Assembly (NCBI GenBank): GCA_965209035.1
Contig: OZ242372.1
Location: 1,856,001-1,920,000 of the forward strand
Source of the DNA: Gammaproteobacteria bacterium
GTDB lineage: Bacteria; Pseudomonadota; Gammaproteobacteria; CBDBNL01; JAAOII01
Direction: 5' to 3'
DNA length: 64,000 nt
Part shown: piece after piece, positions 20,732 through 29,376 of the stretch
Position numbering within the stretch: position 1 is the stretch's first letter
Layout of the letters: every line of letters starts with the position of its first letter
Program-made: the position numbers and the translations under genes
Notes under the pieces: model-generated
The model's database searches: none
What the model saw: the letters and a program-made list of their open reading frames with translations, nothing else
Told to the model about the DNA's origin: nothing

Positions 20732-22015
20732 ATGAAACGATTGATCATCACTATATTAGTTCCGGTTACATCTGTTATAGTACTCGCTTCCCTTGTATTG
20801 TTTTATTCTATCTTGGAGAGCAATAGGATTTTTGTCGGGCAGTATTTGGGCAACAAACTCAAGCATACGGAAGTTCGGAAAATATTTGACGAATTTGAAA
20901 CACAGAGCAATGTCCGATTACAATACAAGTTCTTTTCAAGTAAGGGGGGTGTTCAAAAAGATATTTCAAAAAAGAGGTTGCGGGATGTTTTAATTTACTC
21001 GGCGGGGGTGCGAACAGAGGAACTTGCGGCCGCCGAACGCCTGCTGCCGACAGAGGCTCTGTGGGAAAAATATAAGTTGGACGCTCTTGTCCCCCGGCCG
21101 CTTGCTGCCGTCGGTTTCTATCAAGGCAAACGTTATATGATCCCGTTTGGTTATCATTATTCGGGTATTTTCTACAACATCAAGTTAATGCAAGAAACCG
21201 GTCGGAGCGGACTGCGGGGTACCCGGAATACTCCGGATACTTGGACCCAATTTTTGAATGCCTGCGCCGGATTAAAGTCCAAGGGGATTACGCCGTTTTT
21301 AATTGATGTCCGGGACACGCATTCCGCCCAACTCTGGTTTGACTACATCATTGCCCGCACAGTCGGCGCCGAATTCAGAGAAAGACTAATGAACGGAAAG
21401 ATTTCCTATGCGAACAGGCGGGTGCGCGAAGCGATGTTTTTTTGGCGTGATTTAATAGATTATGATTGTTTTGAGTTGCACCGCGGTTCCGGTGATTTCA
21501 CCGAGGTTGCCGCAAAGGTCGCTCGGGGCAAGGTGGCAATGATCCTGACCGATAGCCGGGTGATTAACTATTGGGATGGCATTGAATTTAAGCAAGGCAC
21601 CGATTACAAATTTTTCCCGTTTCCGTCCATGAGCAGGCATGGGTCGCGTGCGACTGTGGGCTCGGTCGGCGGCTGGCTTGTTTCCGCGGATGTCCGTAAT
21701 AAGAAAAGAATGGAAGACTTCTTATCTTATGTTGCGGCCGATGCCGATACGCAACTGCAATGGAGTCGGGCTGTGGGCATGACCCTGGCGGTTCACCCGC
21801 TGGCAGGCGAAACAGCTTATTCGGATATGAACAAACGAGCCAAAAGAATAGTCGCAAGATCCGATGTTTTTTTACTTAATTATGAACAATCCACACCGTC
21901 TGCGGTTGCCGAGATCGGTCTTTCAATGTTCGGAGAATTCTTGGAAGAACCAAGTGAGTTACATTCTATTTTGGACGAAGCCGCCAAAAAGATTGAAGCG
22001 GAGTTTAAAAAATGA
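20732..22015 (+). CDS. ABC transporter extracellular solute-binding protein (carbohydrate-type), no adjacent permease
   Basis: N-terminal anchor; GKRYMIPF, IFYN..L, P.TW..FL.AC..LK..GI.P, G..AM and FPFP motifs. Confidence 0.75.
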   Translation: MKRLIITILVPVTSVIVLASLVLFYSILESNRIFVGQYLGNKLKHTEVRKIFDEFETQSNVRLQYKFFSSKGGVQKDISKKRLRDVLIYSAGVRTEELAAAERLLPTEALWEKYKLDALVPRPLAAVGFYQGKRYMIPFGYHYSGIFYNIKLMQETGRSGLRGTRNTPDTWTQFLNACAGLKSKGITPFLIDVRDTHSAQLWFDYIIARTVGAEFRERLMNGKISYANRRVREAMFFWRDLIDYDCFELHRGSGDFTEVAAKVARGKVAMILTDSRVINYWDGIEFKQGTDYKFFPFPSMSRHGSRATVGSVGGWLVSADVRNKKRMEDFLSYVAADADTQLQWSRAVGMTLAVHPLAGETAYSDMNKRAKRIVARSDVFLLNYEQSTPSAVAEIGLSMFGEFLEEPSELHSILDEAAKKIEAEFKK

Positions 22016-22023
22016 CAGGGTGT

Positions 22024-22103
22024 ACAATCTGTCCGCAACTGTCCCGGGTAAAGACCGAATATGTCCGCCAGAGGAATGGCAGTATCTTCCAATGGTGTTA
22101 TAA
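22024..22103 (+). repeat. 80-bp direct repeat, left copy (putative long target-site duplication)
   Basis: Aligns without gaps to 28825-28904 with 8 mismatches by manual count; abuts the left terminal inverted repeat. Confidence 0.9.
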
Positions 22104-22143
22104 CTTGACTTCGGAAAGAATTTTTTAGATTTTTAAAAACTCT

Positions 22144-22208
22144 TGTATGATCCCACCGATTTTCGGACTTTTGTTGTTTTTGTAAAAACCGGATCGGCGA
22201 GAGTTGTT
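22144..22208 (+). repeat. 65-bp direct repeat, left copy, bracketing the adhesin gene
   Basis: TGTATGATCCCACC...GGATCGGCGAGAGTTGTT; matches 27853-27917 with 3 mismatches. Confidence 0.9.
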
Positions 22209-22422
22209 AAGGGAAAAACGCGTATCAGCCGGCATAAAAGACCCGGGTGCCTGCCCATAGATTTCGAATAACAGAGATGAGAGGCAGAGACTAAGAATAA
22301 GTTGGAAGTTGGGCCGGCAGCCGTCTTATTTGTCGTGCTCTGCCTTGCCTCGTCCTGTCCCGCCCCGATCTGCCGGTCCGTTCCGGGGCTTCCCGCTTGC
22401 CGGCCTCTCTTACCGGCCCCTC

Positions 22423-25400
22423 TTACCGGCCTTGAGCCGAAAGGCCGCCCGGCAGGCAGTTCAGAGCCGGGTATTGGCTGCTCGTGCCGAGATCCCAGAC
22501 GCGGATGAAACCGAGTGGTTGGGAAGAACTTGTCATTTCCTCGCCCGTGTTCGGGTTGCACCAAGCATTGCCCCAGTCGGCATAGATGCTCCCGGCAAAG
22601 TCGGTCGGCGATTGCAATGCTGTCGTGTTATGACCCTCACCGAAATTACCGTCACTCATAGACTGCATGGTGGTTTGATTGTCCCAATAGGTGGCAATGA
22701 CATTGGTCTCAATATTGGCGCTGCCGATCAATCCGCCGACAGTACCCTCACCTGAAACAAGCCGGGGGCGGCATAAGAATAATTAATTTGAGCTTTTTCT
22801 CCATACCCAACCAGGCCGCCAGCAGCACCATAAGTCTCGCCGCCGCTCCCGGAAACAATTCCGCCGCGCACATAGGCATAGCGAATATCCGCATTCCTAC
22901 CAAACCCAACCAGGCCGCCAACATGAACAAGCCCGGAAACATTTCCGCCGGACACGGACGCATAGCGAATATCCGCACCCTCACCACGCCCAACCAGGCC
23001 GCCAACATAATCCCCGGAAATATCCACACCGGACACGAACGCATAGCGAATATCCGCATTTAGACCATACCCAACCAGGCCGCCAGCTCTATTCTCGAAA
23101 GCATTCCCGGCAACACTTCCGCCGGACACGGACGCATAGCGAATATCCGCATTCTCACCATACCCAACCAGGCCGCCCACACCCACATTAGTGGCATTGC
23201 CTCTGACATCCGCATTCAAGAGATGCAGATTTTGGATATCGCCGGTTAAGGCACCAAACAACCCCACTCCATAGGCAGTATTGTTCGCAGAGATGAACAG
23301 ATCGGCAATACGATAACCCCCGCCGTCAAAGATTCCGGTATAAGAGGTGCAAACATCCACAGCGGAACAAGAGCCGATCGGCTGCCAACCGCTGTCGCTG
23401 AGATTCGTCCAAACAACTTGATTGCCACTGCCCGCGGCATAGGAAGCATCATCACTAAAATTGAACGAGCGAGTTAATTCATAACCCACACAGCCGCCGT
23501 CATCGTCATCCGGGCAGCCCATAGAGCCCACAGAGGTGATCTCGGGGATACGGTCATCATCCTCACCATCGCCGTTCAGATCATCGCGCAGCCGCGCCAA
23601 GTCATCCAAAGTGTGGATCTCTATCAAGCCATTATTATTGTCATCCACATCCTCATCGTTATCCCGACAACCGTCACGGTCATCGTCCGTCCCCGCCGAA
23701 GAAGTCCAGCCGGTAACACCGGTCGGACAAGTATCCGCAAGATCCTCCACACCGTCATTGTCATCGTCATCATCACAGGCATCACCGCCGTCAGCCGCAT
23801 TGTCCGTGTTGGCTTGGTCCGCATTGGCAACCAACGGACAATTATCGTTATCATCATCCCTATCGTCATTGTCATCGTCATCATCACAGGCATCACCGCC
23901 GTCATCCACATTATCCGTGTTGGCTTGGCCCGCATTGGCAACCAACGGACAATTATCGATCGGATCCAGCACGCCATCATTGTCATCGTCCGGATCTTCA
24001 TCTGTGTCGCGACAGCCGTCACCGTCATGGTCCGCGGACGCATTGGAAGTCCAGCCGGTAACACCGGTTGGGCAAGTATCCGCAAGATCCTCCACACCGT
24101 CATTGTCATCGTCCGGATCTTCTATTAAGGTGGTATTCACATCGGTCGTGCAGGCGGCAGATAATCTGTCCGGCATGCCGTCCTCATCCGTGTCGGCACT
24201 CGCACAGGCATCCGTCGGAAACGCATCTACGTCATTCAAGGTATCATCATCGTCAATATCTGTGCCTACACCCGCATCCGCTCCCGTTGTGCCAGACACA
24301 GGAGGTGAGGTCACGATAGTGCCGCTCTCATAACGCACCGCAATCGTGATGTTGTAGGCGGTGTTATTGGTTAAGCCCGTAATGTTGTAGATGACCCGAA
24401 CAAGAGGCGCAACATCCGCCACGGTAGAATTAAGTTCTTTTCTGCCGCCATCGCTCGCATCGTCACTGCGTGTGGTAATAACGAACCTGTCGATATTATC
24501 CGCAGCCGGATTAGTCCAACCCACGAGAATATAATCCGCACCGGCCAGAGTCTGGATATTGGAAACAGCCGGGGAATTCTGAGGAGCGGGAAGGCCTCCC
24601 GGCAGGCAGTTCAGGGTCGGGTATTGGCTGCTCGTGCCGAGATCCCAGACGCGGATGAAACCGAGCGGTTGGGAAGAACTTGTCATTTCCTCGCCGGTGT
24701 TCGGGTTGCACCAGAAGTTGCCCCAGTCGGCATAGATTCCCGTGAAGTCGGTCGGCGATTGTAAGGCTGTCGTGTTATGACCCTCGCCCAAATTACCGGC
24801 ACTCATAGACTGCATGGTGGTTTGATTGTCCCAATAAGTGGCAATGACATCGGTGCCACTATTGGTGATGCCGATCAATCCACCGACAGCACCGGAACCT
24901 GAAACAAGCCCGGGGGCGGCATAAGAATAATTAATTTGAGCTTCTTCCCCATACCCAACCAGGCCGCCAACAGAATTACCCGCATTGTCCTCGCCAACAA
25001 AACTCCCGGAAACACTTCCGCCGGACACGGACGCATAGCGAATATCCGCCCTTCCACCAAACCCAACCAGCCCGCCAGCATAAAAACCTGCCCCGGAAAC
25101 ATTCACACCGGACACGGACGCATAGCGAATATCCGCATTCTCACCATACCCAACCAGGCCGCCAACAAAACTCCCGGCAACACTTCCGCCGGACACGGAC
25201 GCATAGCGAATATCCGCATTTGCACCATTCCCAGCTAGGCCGCCGGCAACATTCCCGGCAACACTTCCGCCGGACACGGACGCATAGCGAATATCCGCAT
25301 CCTGACCATTCCCAACCAGGCCGCCGGCAATACTCCCGGAAACACTTCCGCCGGACACGGACGCATTGTGAATATCCGCATTCTCACCAAACCCAACCAG

Positions 25401-27740
25401 ACCACCGGCAACATTTAGGCGAAATATATTCACGCCGCTAACAAGACGACTCGCCCCGGAAACATTCACACCGTACACGGACGCATAGCGAATATCCGCA
25501 TCCTGACCATTCCCAACCAGGCCGCCGGCAGCAATAATCCCGGCAACACTTCCGCCGGACACGGACGCATAGCGAATATCTGCCCTTCCACCATTCCCAA
25601 CCAGGCCGCCGGCAACAAACCCGGAAACACTTCCGCCGGACATGGACGCATTGCGAATATCCGCATCCTCACCATACCCAACCAGGCCGCCAACAGCATC
25701 ACTCCCGGAAACACTTCCGCCGGACACGGACGCATTGTGAATAGACGCATTCCTGCCATTCCCAACCAGGCCGCCCACATCAGCGGCACCACCACTGACA
25801 TCTGCATTCCGGAGATGCAGATTTTGAATATCGCCGGTTAAGGCACCAAACAACCCCACTCCATAGGCAGTATCGCTCGCAGAGATGAACAGATCTGCAA
25901 TACGATAACCCCTGCCGTCAAAGATTCCGGTATAAGAGGTGCAAACATCCACAGCGGAACAAGAGCCGATCGGCTGCCAACCGCTGCCGGTTGTCCAGAC
26001 AGTCGGGTTGCCACTGCCCGCGGCATAGGAATCATCATCACTAAAATTGAACGAGCGAGTTAATTCATAACCCATACAGCCGCCGTCATCGCCATCCGGG
26101 CAGCCCATAGAACCCACAGAGGTGATCTCGGGGATACGGCCATCATCCGTCCCATCGCCGTTCAGATCATCGCGCAGCCGCGCCAAGTCATCCAAAGTAT
26201 GGATCTCGATCAAGCCATTATTATTGTCATCCACATCCTCATCGTTATCCCGACAACCGTCACGGTCATCGTCCGTCCCCGCCAAAGAAGTCCAGCCGGT
26301 AACACCGGTTGGGCAAGTATCCGCAAGATCCCCCACACCGTCATTGTCATCGTCATCATCACAGGCATCACCGCCGTCAGCCGCATTGTCCGTGTTGGCT
26401 TGGTCCGCATTGGCAACCAACGGACAATTATCGTTCGGATCCGCCTCGCCGTCATTGTCATCGTCCGAATCTTCATCTGTGTCGCGACAGCCGTCACCGT
26501 CATGGTCCGCGGACGCATTGGAAGTCCAGCCGGTAACACCGGTTGGGCAAGTATCCGCAAGATCCTCCACACCGTCATTGTCATCGTCATCATCACAGGC
26601 ATCACCGCCGTCAGCCGCATTGTCCGTGTTGGCTTGGTCCGCATTGGCAACCAACGGACAATTATCGTTCGGATCCGCCTCGCCGTCATTGTCATCGTCC
26701 GGATCTTCTATTAAGGTGGTATTCACATCGGTCCTGCAGCCGGCAGATAAGCTGTCCGGATTGCCGTCCTCATCCGTATCGGTGCTCGCACAGGCATCCG
26801 TCGGAAACGCATCGTCCGTATCCGCCACGCCATCATTGTCATCGTCCGGATCTTCTGTTAAGTTGATATTCACACCGGTCGTGCAGGTGGCAGATAAGCT
26901 GTCCGGATTGCCGTCCTCATCCGTATCGGTACTCGCACAGGCATCTGTCCGGAACGCATCGACCGTATCCGCCACGCCATCATTGTCATCGTCCGGATCT
27001 TCTGTTAAGGTAGTATTCACACCGGTCGTGCAACCGGCAGATAAGCTGTCCGGCTTGCCGTCATTATCCGTGTCGGCACTCGCACAGGCATCCGTCGGAA
27101 ACGCATCTACGTCATTCAAGGTATCATCATCGTCAATATCTGTGCCTACACCCGCATCCGCTCCCGTTGTGCCAGACACAGGAGGTGAGGCCCTCCCGAT
27201 AATGCCGTTCTTATAACGCACCGCAATCGTGATGTGATAGGTGATGTCATTGGTTAAGCCCGTAATGTTGTAGATGACCCGAGCAAGCGGCGCAACATCC
27301 GCCGCGGTAGAATTAAGTTCTTTTGTTATGCCACCATCGCTCGCATCGTCACGGCGTATGGTAATAACGAACCCGTCGATATTATCCGGATCCGGATTAG
27401 TCCAACCCACGAGAATATGATCCTCACCGACCAGAGTCTGGGTATTGGAAACAGCCGGGGAATTCTGAGGAGCGGGATCGCCCGGGGAATTCTGAGGAGC
27501 GGGATCGCCGCCGCCACCGCCGCCACAACCTGTCAGGACCAAACCGAACATACCCGCCAGCAGCACACCGTAAAAACGAGCCGGTATGCGCATCCGTCGT
27601 GCCCTATTGGGTTCGGGAAAAGCCTTAAAGACATTAAAGGCATTAAAAGTATTATTAAGGAGACGCACAGATACCGTGCCTCTTTGTTCGCGGCGCATTG
27701 CTTTCACCGACCGCACAGGAAAAAAATTTAACTGATTCAT
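22423..27740 (-). CDS. Large repeat-rich surface lipoprotein/adhesin (FN3-like, thrombospondin type-3-like Ca-binding and GLUG-like repeats); 1-bp frameshift near the C-terminus
   Basis: Lipobox LVLTGC followed by a poly-Gly linker; W.NP...YNITGLTN...Y.I.IAV (FN3-like); DDDNDG..D..DNCP repeats; AGGLVG....ADIRYASVSGG repeats. ORFs 22728-27740 and 22423-22731 join if one C is restored at ~22762. Confidence 0.8.
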
Positions 27741-27852
27741 TATTTTCTATTGTTTATTATTGTTTTCTGTTATGATTAATGGGAATTAGATACTTTGTGA
27801 CCCATAAAAAAGTAAGTGCCATTATTATTACATTAAAAAGGAGAGTTAGAAG

Positions 27853-27917
27853 TGTATGATCCCACCTATTTTCGGACTTTTTTTATTTTTGTAAAAACCG
27901 GATCGGCGAGAGTTGTT
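27853..27917 (+). repeat. 65-bp direct repeat, right copy
   Basis: Matches 22144-22208. Confidence 0.9.
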
Positions 27918-28039
27918 TGAGAGCATAGTGGGGACGTCCGAGATGATACCAAGCCAGCCATGCGATGAACTTGGCGTTGAATGCCGGCATATCCTTTAAA
28001 CAGGAGATGCCGCACATGACAATCGAACTCTTCCCCCAA

Positions 28040-28205
28040 GGTTATTTTTTAAGGAGCGCGATTGAATCGTTCACAGCGTGCATTCATTTGCGGTTTCCCC
28101 AAAAACAACATAGTATGGGTATACCAGTGGGTGCTGCCGTTTGCTGTCACGACCCGGTGAAAGTCTTTGGCGAACTCACTGCCATTATCGGTGAGGACTT
28201 TCACT
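28040..28205 (-). pseudogene. IS481/IS3-type DDE transposase core fragment
   Basis: Manual minus-strand translation VKVLTDNGSEFAKDFH...KPQMNARCERFNR*, containing the TDNGSEF and N...ERFNR catalytic motifs. Confidence 0.75.
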
Positions 28206-28209
28206 GAGC

Positions 28210-28760
28210 ACCGCAGCAATCAACCGGGCGATGCAAGAAATCGGTCTCTATGGCGTGCAGGCCTCGGCAAATATTGACTACCAAGCCGCCCGCATTTACT
28301 ACAAACAACTGTATGCGATTGAACACGGCTTTCGGGATCTCAAAAGCGATCTGCAGATCCGACCGACCTTCCATTGGAAACCCGAGCACATTTCGCCCTC
28401 TGCTATCTGGCGTTTGCCGCCATCCGCCGCTTGCGGTATGTCTCCTCCGCCAACAAAAGCCGGCACCCACCACCGTGTGGACCACCGAAATGCTGCCGTT
28501 CACTGAGCTGGCGGACCGACCGAAGCCGCAGCAAAAAACAAGACCGAGGAAATCGTCACCACCAAGAAGATCCTCAAAGAACTGCGCAACTTCAAAGCAA
28601 CTATCCAACGCAATCCCGTCGGCAACTATTACAGCAGCCCACACCCACTCACATTAGTTTACCTTGGGGGACAGCAGTGCATTCTACAGGCCGTTCAACT
28701 AAAACCCAAACAACTTGCTCTGTTGGATCACAAACACTAAGCGCAAGCCAGGGCTGGCAA
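28210..28760 (+). pseudogene. IS1634-family transposase C-terminal remnant, frameshifted
   Basis: YKQLYAIEHGFRDLKSDLQIRPTFHW, then in a shifted frame RAHFALCYLAF. This is the Y..L..IE..FR.LK..L..RP.FH...RAH...C..A signature. Confidence 0.8.
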
Positions 28761-28824
28761 GGTATAAAAACGGCCCGCAAGCCCTTATAAGATCAAGATT
28801 TTTTAAGAAGTTTCCGAAGTCAAG

Positions 28825-28904
28825 ACAATCTGCCCGCAACTGTCCCGGGTAAAGACCGAATATGTCCGCCGGAGGAATGGCGATATCTTTCGGCGGTGTT
28901 ATAA
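28825..28904 (+). repeat. 80-bp direct repeat, right copy
   Basis: Matches 22024-22103; begins at the base after the right terminal inverted repeat. Confidence 0.9.
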
Positions 28905-28953: not shown

Positions 28954-29376
28954 ATGAAACTATCTTCTGTTAACTATGTGTCCGCGCTTGTTGCGGCTGT
29001 TGTGGGCTTTGTCTTTGGCTTTATATGGTATAGCCCGTTTTTGTTTGGTGATGTTTGGATGCAAGGGATGAATCTCAATCCGGAATCATTTGCTACCGAC
29101 GGGTTCGTCATTGCCATGGGCGCGAGCCTTGTTCTTAACTTAATTGTCGCGGTGGTGACGGCGGTTTTTGCAAATGCCTTGGGTTGCCGCGGCCTTGGCG
29201 GTGCTGTCTCGCTGAGTTTGTGGCTTGGCGGTGGGATCATTATCGCCAATATGATTGGCGGCTATATTTTTGTCCCCTTTGGTTGGCAAGTTGCCGCGAT
29301 AGACATTGTTTATGTCTTTTTAAGAACGGTTATTTTTTGCCTGTTTGCCTGCCTCTGGACCAAGAAGACCGCATAA
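28954..29376 (+). CDS. DUF1761-like membrane protein
   Basis: NY...LVAA...F..GFIWYSP.LFG..W motif; four hydrophobic helices; SD AAGGA upstream. Confidence 0.75.
   Translation: MKLSSVNYVSALVAAVVGFVFGFIWYSPFLFGDVWMQGMNLNPESFATDGFVIAMGASLVLNLIVAVVTAVFANALGCRGLGGAVSLSLWLGGGIIIANMIGGYIFVPFGWQVAAIDIVYVFLRTVIFCLFACLWTKKTA

Follow-up and report, generated by a model that had tools for sequence, protein, structure and literature searches.

A likely mobile insertion cassette of the IS1634 family with a surface-lipoprotein gene as passenger in a gammaproteobacterial genome

Analysis of a 64,000-nucleotide stretch of a gammaproteobacterial genome (contig OZ242372.1, positions 1,856,001 to 1,920,000; hereafter the window) revealed a nested element of 6,721 bp (22104-28824), which is most likely a transposase-less, cargo-bearing derivative of a resident IS1634-family insertion sequence, i.e. 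a mobile insertion cassette. Including its flanking 80-bp direct repeats, the structure extends over 22024-28904, and the list and order of parts given in the original prediction, from one 80-bp repeat to the other, matched the raw sequence base for base (Table 1). The solute-binding-protein and DUF1761 genes that had been named as its neighbours were confirmed by PF01547 and PF08570, respectively. Transposase-less cassettes between IS ends have already been described under the name mobile insertion cassette (excerpts of PMC3913671), and the window element likewise combines two IS inverted repeats, a passenger in place of the transposase and a target duplication, while the two complete IS copies that define a composite transposon were not found, the left end retaining only 45 bp and the right end 622 bp.

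Table 1 Features of the window element and its flanks (window positions; ISA, IS1634-family element; ISB, IS481-like element; G000:C1, genome coordinates)
Feature	Position	Strand	Evidence
Left flanking host gene, extracellular solute-binding protein	20732..22015	+	PF01547 2.3e-19, PF13416 9.6e-15; outside element
Left 80-bp target duplication copy	22024..22103	.	direct repeat D14, 90%; TTATAA at its end, against IS end
ISA left end, positions 1-45	22104..22148	+	97.8% to intact copy; inverted repeat I17 at 22104-22117
Left 65-bp repeat = ISB positions 1-65	22144..22208	+	90.8%; TGTAT overlap with ISA end
Surface-protein gene 3' flank	22209..22422	-	84.5-94.2% to 13 other loci; conserved in family
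GLUG/fn3/TSP3 surface-lipoprotein gene, double-length	22423..27740	-	PF07581, PF00041, PF02412
Surface-protein gene 5' flank	27741..27852	-	99.1% over 107 bp to G000:C1:738604-738710; 95.9% to 1371053-1371150
IS481-like fragment, 349 bp, truncated (element positions 1-321)	27853..28201	+	82.8% to full copy; first 65 bp = right 65-bp repeat
ISA right part, positions 1350-1971	28202..28824	+	87.1% to intact copies; right 14-bp inverted repeat 28811-28824
Right 80-bp target duplication copy	28825..28904	.	end + next base T = TATAAT, 50 bp upstream of DUF1761 start
Right flanking host gene, DUF1761	28954..29376	+	PF08570 4.5e-23; outside element

Elements of the IS1634 family are characterized by a variant catalytic motif, YREK mostly without the R, and by a long N3-C1 spacer. 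Both ends of the window element carry the 14-nt inverted repeat CTTGACTTCGGAAA, whose copies were 100% complementary in a repeat search of the window and are identical to the ends of six intact elements in the genome. The genome holds 22 exact matches to this 14-mer (10 forward, 12 reverse) against 0 and 0 for the reversed control pattern, placing the ends beyond chance, and most of the matches are paired at a distance of 1971-1986 bp around an IS1634-family transposase gene; a candidate third end pair at 523288/526064 was rejected, its left side being a chance match. The search for matching ends and intact transposases recovered six intact copies, each 1971 or 1986 bp long and encoding a transposase of 596 or 598 aa; with 301.9 and 307.6 bits on NF033559 (cutoff 100) and matches to PF01609, they bear out the proposed IS1634 origin of the shell. 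Their ends (CTTGACTT..., with C at position 1 and TT at positions 7-8) fit the terminal consensus C-----YT of the family, for which a length of 1500-2000 bp is given (excerpts of PMC2266710). Outside this genome, one metagenome contig encodes the nearest relative of the transposase (95% identity), followed by a protein with 44% and others with at most 32%, and the enzyme is very distant from those of the named family members. In the window, IS positions 46-1349 are gone and only 1-45 and 1350-1971 are kept, with a transposase remnant covering residues 419-596 (68% identity, one TGA stop), and the shell is non-autonomous as had been proposed.

Comparison of the flanking repeats across the genome supported the view that the 80-bp repeats represent a long target duplication. 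Those of the six intact copies are 100% identical and 159, 169, 190, 212, 247 and 561 bp in length, and a 429-bp miniature derivative is flanked by a 295-bp duplication with 99.7% identity. Taken together, nine of the ten elements examined are flanked by duplications (44, 80, 159, 169, 190, 212, 247, 295 and 561 bp), the tenth being a miniature copy without one; seven of the nine are perfect or show a single difference, and eight carry TTATA[AC] at their start or its reverse complement at their end, a site with a background of 0.45 occurrences per kb. The two 80-nt copies in the window (90% identical with 8 mismatches in the repeat search) abut the 14-nt inverted repeats without a gap in the raw sequence, exactly as originally described. 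Only these two full-length copies exist in the genome, all further matches being at most 28 nt long at E values up to 10; they are therefore not members of a dispersed repeat and, given the TTATAA at their end, which is also the edge used by this IS, were assigned as target duplication. With 8 differences in 80 positions between its flanking copies, compared with none in the duplications of the intact elements, the insertion in the window is old. A terminator-like hairpin is located at 28867-28882 within the right copy.

The long and variable duplications of IS1634 and IS1549, which the original prediction had treated as established, are indeed in print with a range of 8-514 bp, and the same source states that, as of 2008, no model had been proposed for them (excerpts of PMC2266710). 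The parent IS described here resembles IS1634 of Mycoplasma mycoides and IS1549 of Mycobacterium smegmatis in family, length range and C-----YT ends, and its duplications of 44-561 bp match these long-duplication members rather than the typical 5-6 bp majority; it would therefore join the two members reported with this property in the excerpted text. The fixed TTATA[AC] edge of its duplications may set it apart from both, and the copy in the window furthermore lacks a transposase and carries a passenger gene.

Inside the shell, the repeat search revealed two 65-nt direct repeats (22144-22208 and 27853-27917, 95% identical). While their presence was correctly predicted, they are not cassette ends of their own, but the first 65 bases of an IS481-like element for which 106 BLAST hits, including 20 full copies of 1299-1304 bp, were obtained in the genome. 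Identical 5-bp flanks were found at 14 of the 20 full copies, and the transposase gave NF033577 as best NCBIfam match (172.4 bits, below the cutoff of 224), with rve and HTH domains present. Positions 1-65 of this element, or 31-65 only, followed by [AG]AGG[AG]AAAA, occur downstream of 13 members of the surface-protein family, so the left 65-bp repeat corresponds to the module that normally forms the 3' flank in this family and is not peculiar to the cassette in the window. More generally, the IS481-like left-end fragments around the cargo gene, 65 bp downstream and 349 bp upstream, are the usual flanks of this family. The reading of 65-bp left end, gene and full IS481-like copy as an IS481-type transposon with a distal left end was rejected, because loci with a full copy upstream of the gene (e.g. 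527548) have no 65-bp copy downstream. Within the left 65-bp repeat, a consensus promoter (TTTACA-16-GAAAAT) is present on the minus strand (22186->22159).

The cargo gene was likewise found as predicted, but its extent had to be corrected from 22728-27740 to 22423-27740, since a 1-nt deletion splits it into ORFs at 22728-27740 (1670 aa) and 22423-22731 (102 aa). The frameshift was placed in a C5G3 tract at about position 22762 (plus-strand CC at 22762-22763) by comparison with three paralogues. The encoded protein features the lipobox LVLTGC and the family C-terminus ...GGLSAQGR, and the gene shows internal tandem similarity (repeats D6 and D8-D12). It belongs to a surface-lipoprotein family of 90 ORFs which accounts for about a tenth of the genome; the label 'adhesin' is a guess from the domain content (GLUG, fn3 and TSP3 repeats, with a lipobox). 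The parent IS inserts in and beside genes of this family, as illustrated by an intact copy located inside one of them at G000:C1:735886-737856.

A second shell of the same design was detected at G000:C1:563020-566682. It consists of IS positions 1-53, IS481-like debris, a family gene, IS481-like positions 1-144 and IS positions 1813-1971, i.e. the same parts in the same order and orientation as in the window, and is flanked by its own 44-bp duplication with TTATAA at the end. Over the last 163 bp, the two right IS ends agree at 93.8% and share indels, whereas no other copy, the intact ones included, exceeds 89.5%. The IS481-like fragments of both shells are 97.2% alike over 144 bp, the next best match being 95.1%. 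The internal junctions are never identical: the left IS part stops at 45 in the window and at 53 in the sister shell, and the right junctions join IS481-like 321 to IS 1350 and 144 to 1813, respectively. The right junction of the sister shell corresponds to the arrangement in the window after loss of 669 bp at a CCTT microhomology. A third locus (G000:C1:260148-260331) connects IS position 53/54 to the right tip of the IS481-like element by the same junction as the sister shell, which shows that IS copies already bearing IS481-like inserts were propagated. The shell lineage probably moved in trans, that is, without a transposase of its own, at least once, since the sister shell repeats the layout inside a separate 44-bp duplication. 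The six intact transposase genes, the miniature derivative with its 295-bp duplication and the sister shell together make mobilisation in trans plausible. The left IS end in the window measures 45 bp vs the 141 bp kept by the miniature derivatives, and with so short an end the element may no longer be a transposase substrate.

The same pair of shells could also have arisen by decay in place, which we consider unlikely. According to this explanation, two autonomous copies of an extinct third IS lineage inserted independently, each with its own duplication, and nothing non-autonomous ever transposed; at a later stage, each copy would have been hollowed out while IS481-like elements and family genes entered by recombination or gene conversion, a process that the 106 IS481-like hits and 90 family ORFs could drive. 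It would account for the fact that no internal junction is common to both shells, for non-sister cargo genes with different flank variants, and for the intact IS found inside a family gene. Yet two independent decays would have to arrive at four parts in identical order and orientation, and the IS481-like fragments of both shells would have to end up as mutual nearest relatives. A single 669-bp microhomology deletion is sufficient to turn the right junction in the window into that of its sister. The propagation of IS copies with IS481-like inserts seen at the third locus argues against it as well, as do the miniature derivatives with long duplications, which speak for trans-mobilisation in this genome.

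For the cargo itself, the two shells allow two accounts, each of which comes close to an even chance: the surface-protein gene may have been aboard the shell during a jump, or it may have been slotted into each shell later by homologous recombination at the IS481-like fragment. Neither cargo gene has the other as its closest relative: over 2.5 kb they agree at 85.7%, while other paralogues resemble their flanks and segments at 88-99%. The start codon lies 112 bp from the junction of 5' flank and IS481-like tip in the window, compared with 248 bp in the sister shell.

Most of the known transposase-less cassettes between IS ends belong to the IS231/IS4 group or come from resistance plasmids. Among them, MIC231 of Bacillus cereus is mobilised in trans by the transposase of IS231A, and MIC231 as well as the mic elements of qnrD and qnrS2 share with the window element the IS inverted repeats, the missing transposase, the target duplication and the passenger (excerpts of PMC3913671). 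In contrast to the MIC231 type as covered there, the parent here belongs to the IS1634 family and not to IS231/IS4, the duplication comprises 80 bp instead of about 10 bp, and the interior is a mosaic that includes pieces of a second IS as well as a dead transposase gene stretch of 622 bp. Furthermore, mobilisation in trans was demonstrated for MIC231, while we infer it for the window element. That IS1634-family ends can move host genes as cargo, as suggested for the window, is known from Tn6097 of Paracoccus ferrooxidans, a composite of two ISPfe2 copies of this family (excerpts of PMC3281130). In that text, Tn6097 is described with two complete IS copies and 6-bp duplications, whereas the window element has a 45-bp end, a 622-bp remnant, an 80-bp duplication and no working transposase. 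A literature search for miniature or non-autonomous elements of the IS1634 family returned unrelated MITE papers only. The original statement that no described adhesin-carrying element of this kind was known requires qualification, as both the cassette kind (PMC3913671) and IS1634-family cargo (PMC3281130) are known from the excerpted sources, while a surface-protein passenger in an IS1634-family cassette would extend what these describe.

The experimental capture of an IS1634-family composite with cargo (Tn6097; excerpts of PMC3281130) also raises a composite origin, in which chromosomal DNA with a family gene and its IS481-like debris came to lie between two direct complete IS copies, the unit moved by the outermost IS ends and the inner parts were lost later. 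Although the parent IS does insert in and beside family genes, we regard this origin as quite improbable: in both shells the left IS part meets a tip of the IS481-like element, namely the left tip in the window (at IS 40-45) and the right one in the sister (at IS 53), which points to insertion into one IS copy and not to random trimming of two, and none of the 22 exact end matches revealed a family gene enclosed by two full copies.

An assembly chimera, in which the repeats of two IS families and one gene family misled the assembler so that the nested structure was never one molecule, appears highly improbable. The region does consist almost entirely of multi-copy sequence that short-read unitigs cannot bridge, and the single-base frameshift lies in a homopolymer tract, an error-prone place; still, perfect inverted ends placed exactly against a TTATAA-ended duplication are not expected from such an error, the junctions IS 45 / IS481-like 1 and IS481-like 321 / IS 1350 each occur only once in the genome, and the contig spans 2.18 Mb. 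Unitigs from runs X1-X3, which represent one sample and possibly the source of the assembly, and whose contigs cannot span the repeats, break at the identical 37-bp core of the 80-bp repeat (22069 and 28841). Such breaks are expected if both diverged 80-bp copies are present in the sample, and they need both versions, which differ at 8 positions. A read joint across 22103/28825 was not found among the 15 of 50 joints listed, and the joints 22194->27903 and 22194->27911 were rejected as excision products because the letters between them match a locus near C1:139243, i.e. they stem from paralogous loci. Run X4 gave no depth on either unique flank in 12% of the run and is uninformative on the locus.

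The search for an empty site covered 40 relatives with the right flank as DNA query and returned only the two copies in the genome under study and weak DUF1761 matches; the genus contains no further genome, and the family relatives are without synteny. Accordingly, at the DUF1761 loci of two of them (G002 and G003), the 11 kb covered include neither a solute-binding-protein gene nor a SOD or symporter gene. No match was obtained for the exact 37-nt repeat core in metagenome contigs or for the junction between IS481-like fragment and IS in genome contigs, and none of the 121 pattern matches from a protein-guided scan with the solute-binding protein was confirmed.

With regard to the mechanism, one of the six intact copies would have provided in trans the transposase that joined one end of the cassette at TTATAA and the other 80 bp away, in the intergenic DNA after the solute-binding-protein gene, and repair synthesis would then have duplicated the 80 bp between the joined points. 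As the duplicated DNA lies upstream of the cut, the putative promoter would have stayed with the DUF1761 gene.

On a wider scale, one could imagine a two-tier system that shuffles the surface-protein repertoire and of which the cassette is one piece, a reading we offer with considerable doubt. In the first tier, family genes would be preceded by a domesticated left end of the IS481-like element, a portable module that acts both as promoter and as homology stretch, so that homologous recombination could excise, amplify and insert cassettes. In the second tier, transposase-less IS1634-type shells equipped with this module would bring cassettes to new sites; here, the parent IS would cut at TTATAA, often a -10 box (TATAA|T), and duplicate the upstream 44-561 bp, so that the promoter of the downstream gene would be intact after every insertion.

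The nine insertions with their exact duplications of 44-561 bp, eight of which share the TTATA[AC] edge, provide a clean data set for the mechanism, and the fixed edge, if true, would be the first sequence handle on the long variable duplications of IS1634-type elements. The window element, whose passenger is a host surface-protein gene, would bring mobile insertion cassettes to the IS1634 family, and the entanglement of this surface family with two insertion sequences represents a plausible route to surface variation.

A search of the source genome for intact IS1634 transposases sharing the ends of the window element, a possible source of mobilisation in trans according to the original prediction, returned six intact copies of an insertion sequence, here called ISA. 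In the 2.24-Mb genome, its terminal 14-mer was matched 10 times on the forward and 12 times on the reverse strand, 22 in all (0 and 0 for the reversed control pattern), and 12 of these occurrences form six pairs, spaced 1971 or 1986 bp apart, each around a 596- or 598-aa ORF. Against the NCBIfam model for the IS1634 family, which has a cutoff of 100, the ISA ORF reached 301.9 and 307.6 bits; it also matched PF01609. Size and end (C in position 1, TT in positions 7-8) agree with the IS1634-family table in PMC2266710. The outer shell is that of a genuine insertion sequence resident in this genome. Outside this genome, the nearest proteins to the ISA transposase are one at 95%, from a metagenome contig, a next at 44% and others at no more than 32% identity; it was not found in the four relatives from the same taxonomic family or in 35 of 36 further relatives searched, the sole match among these (G026) being 29% identical. 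Two miniature derivatives join ISA 1-141 to ~1700-1971.

All features listed in the original prediction were located in their places (see table), with the 14-nt inverted repeats directly against the 80-nt copies without a gap. The fragment of a second insertion sequence, ISB, is fused straight to ISA position 1350, and the left 65-bp copy is joined to ISA position 45 via a common TGTAT. As the window retains ISA 1-45 and 1350-1971 only, with a transposase remnant of residues 419-596 (68% identity, one stop), no transposase can be encoded inside and the shell is non-autonomous, as had been proposed.

Features of the window element and related loci (plain positions refer to the window, G000:C1 to the contig of the source genome)
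Feature	Position	Details
Solute-binding-protein gene	20732-22015	outside the unit
Outer 80-nt direct repeat	22024-22103 and 28825-28904	90% identical; repeat search and raw sequence
14-nt inverted repeat CTTGACTTCGGAAA	22104-22117 and 28811-28824	perfect; repeat search and raw sequence
ISA positions 1-45	22104-22148	97.8% identical to intact copy
Inner 65-nt direct repeat	22144-22208 and 27853-27917	95% identical
ORF inside the unit		1670 aa; GLUG, fn3 and thrombospondin type 3 repeats
ISB fragment, ISB positions 1-321	27853-28201	349 bp; first part is the right copy of the 65-bp repeat
ISA positions 1350-1971	28202-28824	87.1% identical to intact copy
DUF1761 gene	28954-29376	outside the unit
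Sister shell, L032	G000:C1:563020-566682	3,663 bp; layout as in the window; in order ISA 1-53, ISB debris, family gene, ISB 1-144, ISA 1813-1971
Miniature ISA derivatives, L034 and L033	G000:C1:1620642-1621270 and 1142281-1142911	429 and 431 bp
Intact ISA copy, L039	G000:C1:734475-739262 (element 735886-737856)	inside a gene of the surface-protein family
Tandem arrays of family units	G000:C1 ~718-733 kb and 1198-1210 kb	units parted by 65-bp ISB remnant

Direct repeats of 100% identity, 159, 169, 190, 212, 247 and 561 bp long, lie directly against the ends of the six intact ISA copies, and the perfect 247-bp duplication, which belongs to the copy inside the L039 gene, is made of coding sequence. 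One miniature copy has a 295-bp duplication (99.7%), which also holds an older, degenerate IS end, and the other has none. Genome-wide comparison of the duplications on the contig (loci L029, L030, L034 and L032) revealed that the duplication begins with TTATA[AC] or ends with its reverse complement in 8 of 9 elements that have one, at a motif background of 0.45 per kb, and that the next base is T in 6 of these 8, making TATAAT. The window element is among the eight, its duplication running into the insertion sequence as ...GGTGTTATAA with the motif at 22098-22103 and 28899-28904. The second edge lies 44-561 bp from the fixed one, and the duplicated stretch is the side upstream of the TATAA/T cut, so that the DUF1761 gene retains its complete putative promoter region. 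Only two full-length copies of the 80-mer exist in the genome, and it is thus not a dispersed repeat. Together with the TTATAA edge and the perfect long duplications at the six intact copies, this identifies the 80-bp repeat as a target duplication. Its two copies mismatch at 8 of 80 positions, so that the window insertion long predates those of the intact copies.

An empty site, as would be expected from the original prediction in related genomes, was not found among the available genomes, which include no second member of the genus; the family relatives G002 and G003 both carry a DUF1761 homologue (41% amino acid identity) without the window's neighbouring genes, and scans of metagenome and genome contigs for sequences of the locus or the element gave no confirmed matches. 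Unitigs of three read runs (X1-X3) end at 22069 and restart at 28841, the borders of a 37-bp identical core within the repeat, which fits two diverged 80-bp copies in the sample. No flank-to-flank joint was seen among the 15 joints listed, of 50, for these runs, which stem from one sample, possibly the source of the assembly, and whose reads cannot bridge the element. Another run, X4, had no depth on either unique flank with 12% of the run sampled and is uninformative for this locus.

A second, similarly built unit, the sister shell, carries an intact family gene of 800 aa in the same orientation as in the window, has one mismatch in the end of its ISA 1813-1971 part and is flanked by 44-bp direct repeats (97.7%) ending in TTATAA. 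Over the terminal 163 bp of ISA, the shells match each other at 93.8%, with indels in common, and no other copy exceeds 89.5%; the ISB fragments agree at 97.2% over 144 bp (next best 95.1%), and the first 45 bp of both shells share a substitution relative to the intact copies. On its right side, the sister shell has the junction that the window arrangement would acquire by losing 669 bp at a CCTT microhomology, and a joint in X1-X3 from 27992 to 28662 represents this deleted form, that is, the sister locus. At a third site, C1:260148-260331, ISA 53/54 meets the right tip of ISB as in the sister shell (83.7% over 123 bp). On this evidence both shells probably go back to a single ISA lineage, either gutted or invaded by the IS481-like element, of which no intact member survives and which reached at least two sites, making its own duplication at each. 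The third-site junction is followed by a repeat-rich ORF of 292 aa, and a degenerate ISA left end (positions 1-45) lies at C1:254648-257259 beside the 3' end of another family gene; a right end matching either was sought and not found.

Whether the gene travelled with the shell, a weak link in the interpretation, was assessed from the cargo. The two shells have no identical internal junctions, their cargo genes are 85.7% alike over 2.5 kb, and the distance from ISB tip to start codon is 112 bp in the window and 248 bp in the sister shell. The 5' flank of the window cargo is 99.1% identical to C1:738604-738710 and its 3' flank is 94.2% identical to C1:733857-734064 versus 90.7% to the sister shell; these closest relatives are the flanks of the ISA-interrupted L039 gene. 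A gene-bearing shell may have jumped, with the gene later overwritten by conversion from paralogues, a history to which we give slightly less than an even chance. With the same, not quite even, likelihood an empty shell of ISA ends and ISB fragment jumped and the cassettes recombined in later at the ISB fragment, where homologous recombination would force the same gene orientation. Both histories require about the same number of events.

The cargo belongs to a surface-lipoprotein family of 90 ORFs, amounting to 83,723 aa and ~11% of the genome, whose members show mosaic similarities to one another. Its N-terminus carries the lipobox LVLTGC, and the family C-terminus ...GGLSAQGR is present out of frame. 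The 5.3-kb gene is broken only once, where a C5G3 tract lacks 1 nt (CC at 22762-22763 of the plus strand vs CCC in three paralogues); frameshift and out-of-frame C-terminus together place the gene at 22423-27740. The gene is either a recent pseudogene or contains a homopolymer sequencing or assembly error, and the break could also mark a phase-variable tract. Like the paralogue at C1:1365596-1371052, it is of double length, an in-frame fusion of two family units. The label 'adhesin' is a guess from domain content.

The inner 65-bp repeats are present as predicted and correspond to the first 65 bases of ISB; they are not peculiar to this locus, as ISB left ends stand at many family genes. With a length of 1299-1304 bp and the ends TGTATGATCC.../...GATCATGCA, ISB gave 106 BLAST matches in the genome, including 20 full copies (e.g. 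L031, C1:459402-460710), 14 of them with identical 5-bp flanks. The 344-aa ISB protein contains rve and HTH domains; it matches the IS481-family model best, with a score of 172 bits that falls short of the cutoff (224). ISB 1-65 or the final 35 bases, followed by a [AG]AGG[AG]AAAA flank, were found 3' of 13 family members, among them all units of two tandem arrays. The left tip faces family ORFs from at most 300 bp upstream in 24 of 90 cases, versus 17 of 913 other ORFs of at least 300 aa, and both 65-bp copies contain an outward promoter-like pattern, TTTACA-16-GAAAAT (9/12 consensus matches), as a pattern match only. Judged from such arrangements, the ISB left end may provide family genes with a portable promoter and with a module for recombination.

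The hexamer AnnnTA, which reads TAnnnT on the opposite strand and there resembles a -10 box, occupies -34 to -29 outside the left tip in 12 of the 20 full ISB copies, and it lies at -35 in two further copies and at -33 in two (background 1.15% per position); ISB seems to insert with set spacing and orientation relative to a -10-like hexamer. Two oppositely oriented copies at C1:1179330 and C1:1182577 have swapped 5-bp flanks (CACTT left vs right), the signature of a recombinational inversion of the ~3 kb between them. At C1:381623-381986, the first 106 bp of ISB stand in three head-to-tail copies upstream of an 1874-aa family ORF.

Bounded by the inverted repeats of an IS within a target duplication, and holding a passenger gene but no transposase, the window element is, in layout and putative function, a mobile insertion cassette, plausibly mobilised in trans, and not a new kind of element. 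The type example in PMC3913671, MIC231, is moved in trans by IS231A. Cargo moved by IS1634-family ends is described in PMC3281130 for Tn6097, a composite transposon that differs in its two complete copies of ISPfe2 and its duplications of 6 bp. An IS1634-family cassette with a host surface-protein gene was not found in searches of the open-access literature. The original interpretation stands for the structure, while the mechanism it proposed is plausible. What rises above routine is the sister copy, the long duplications with a fixed edge, and the way in which two insertion sequences are interwoven with a family of surface proteins filling a tenth of the genome. Long, variable duplications (8-514 bp) are an oddity of IS1634 and IS1549, for which, according to PMC2266710, no mechanism model had been proposed as of 2008, and the exact, long duplications of the present set, with one edge fixed at TTATA[AC], offer a handle on this unexplained transposition mechanism.
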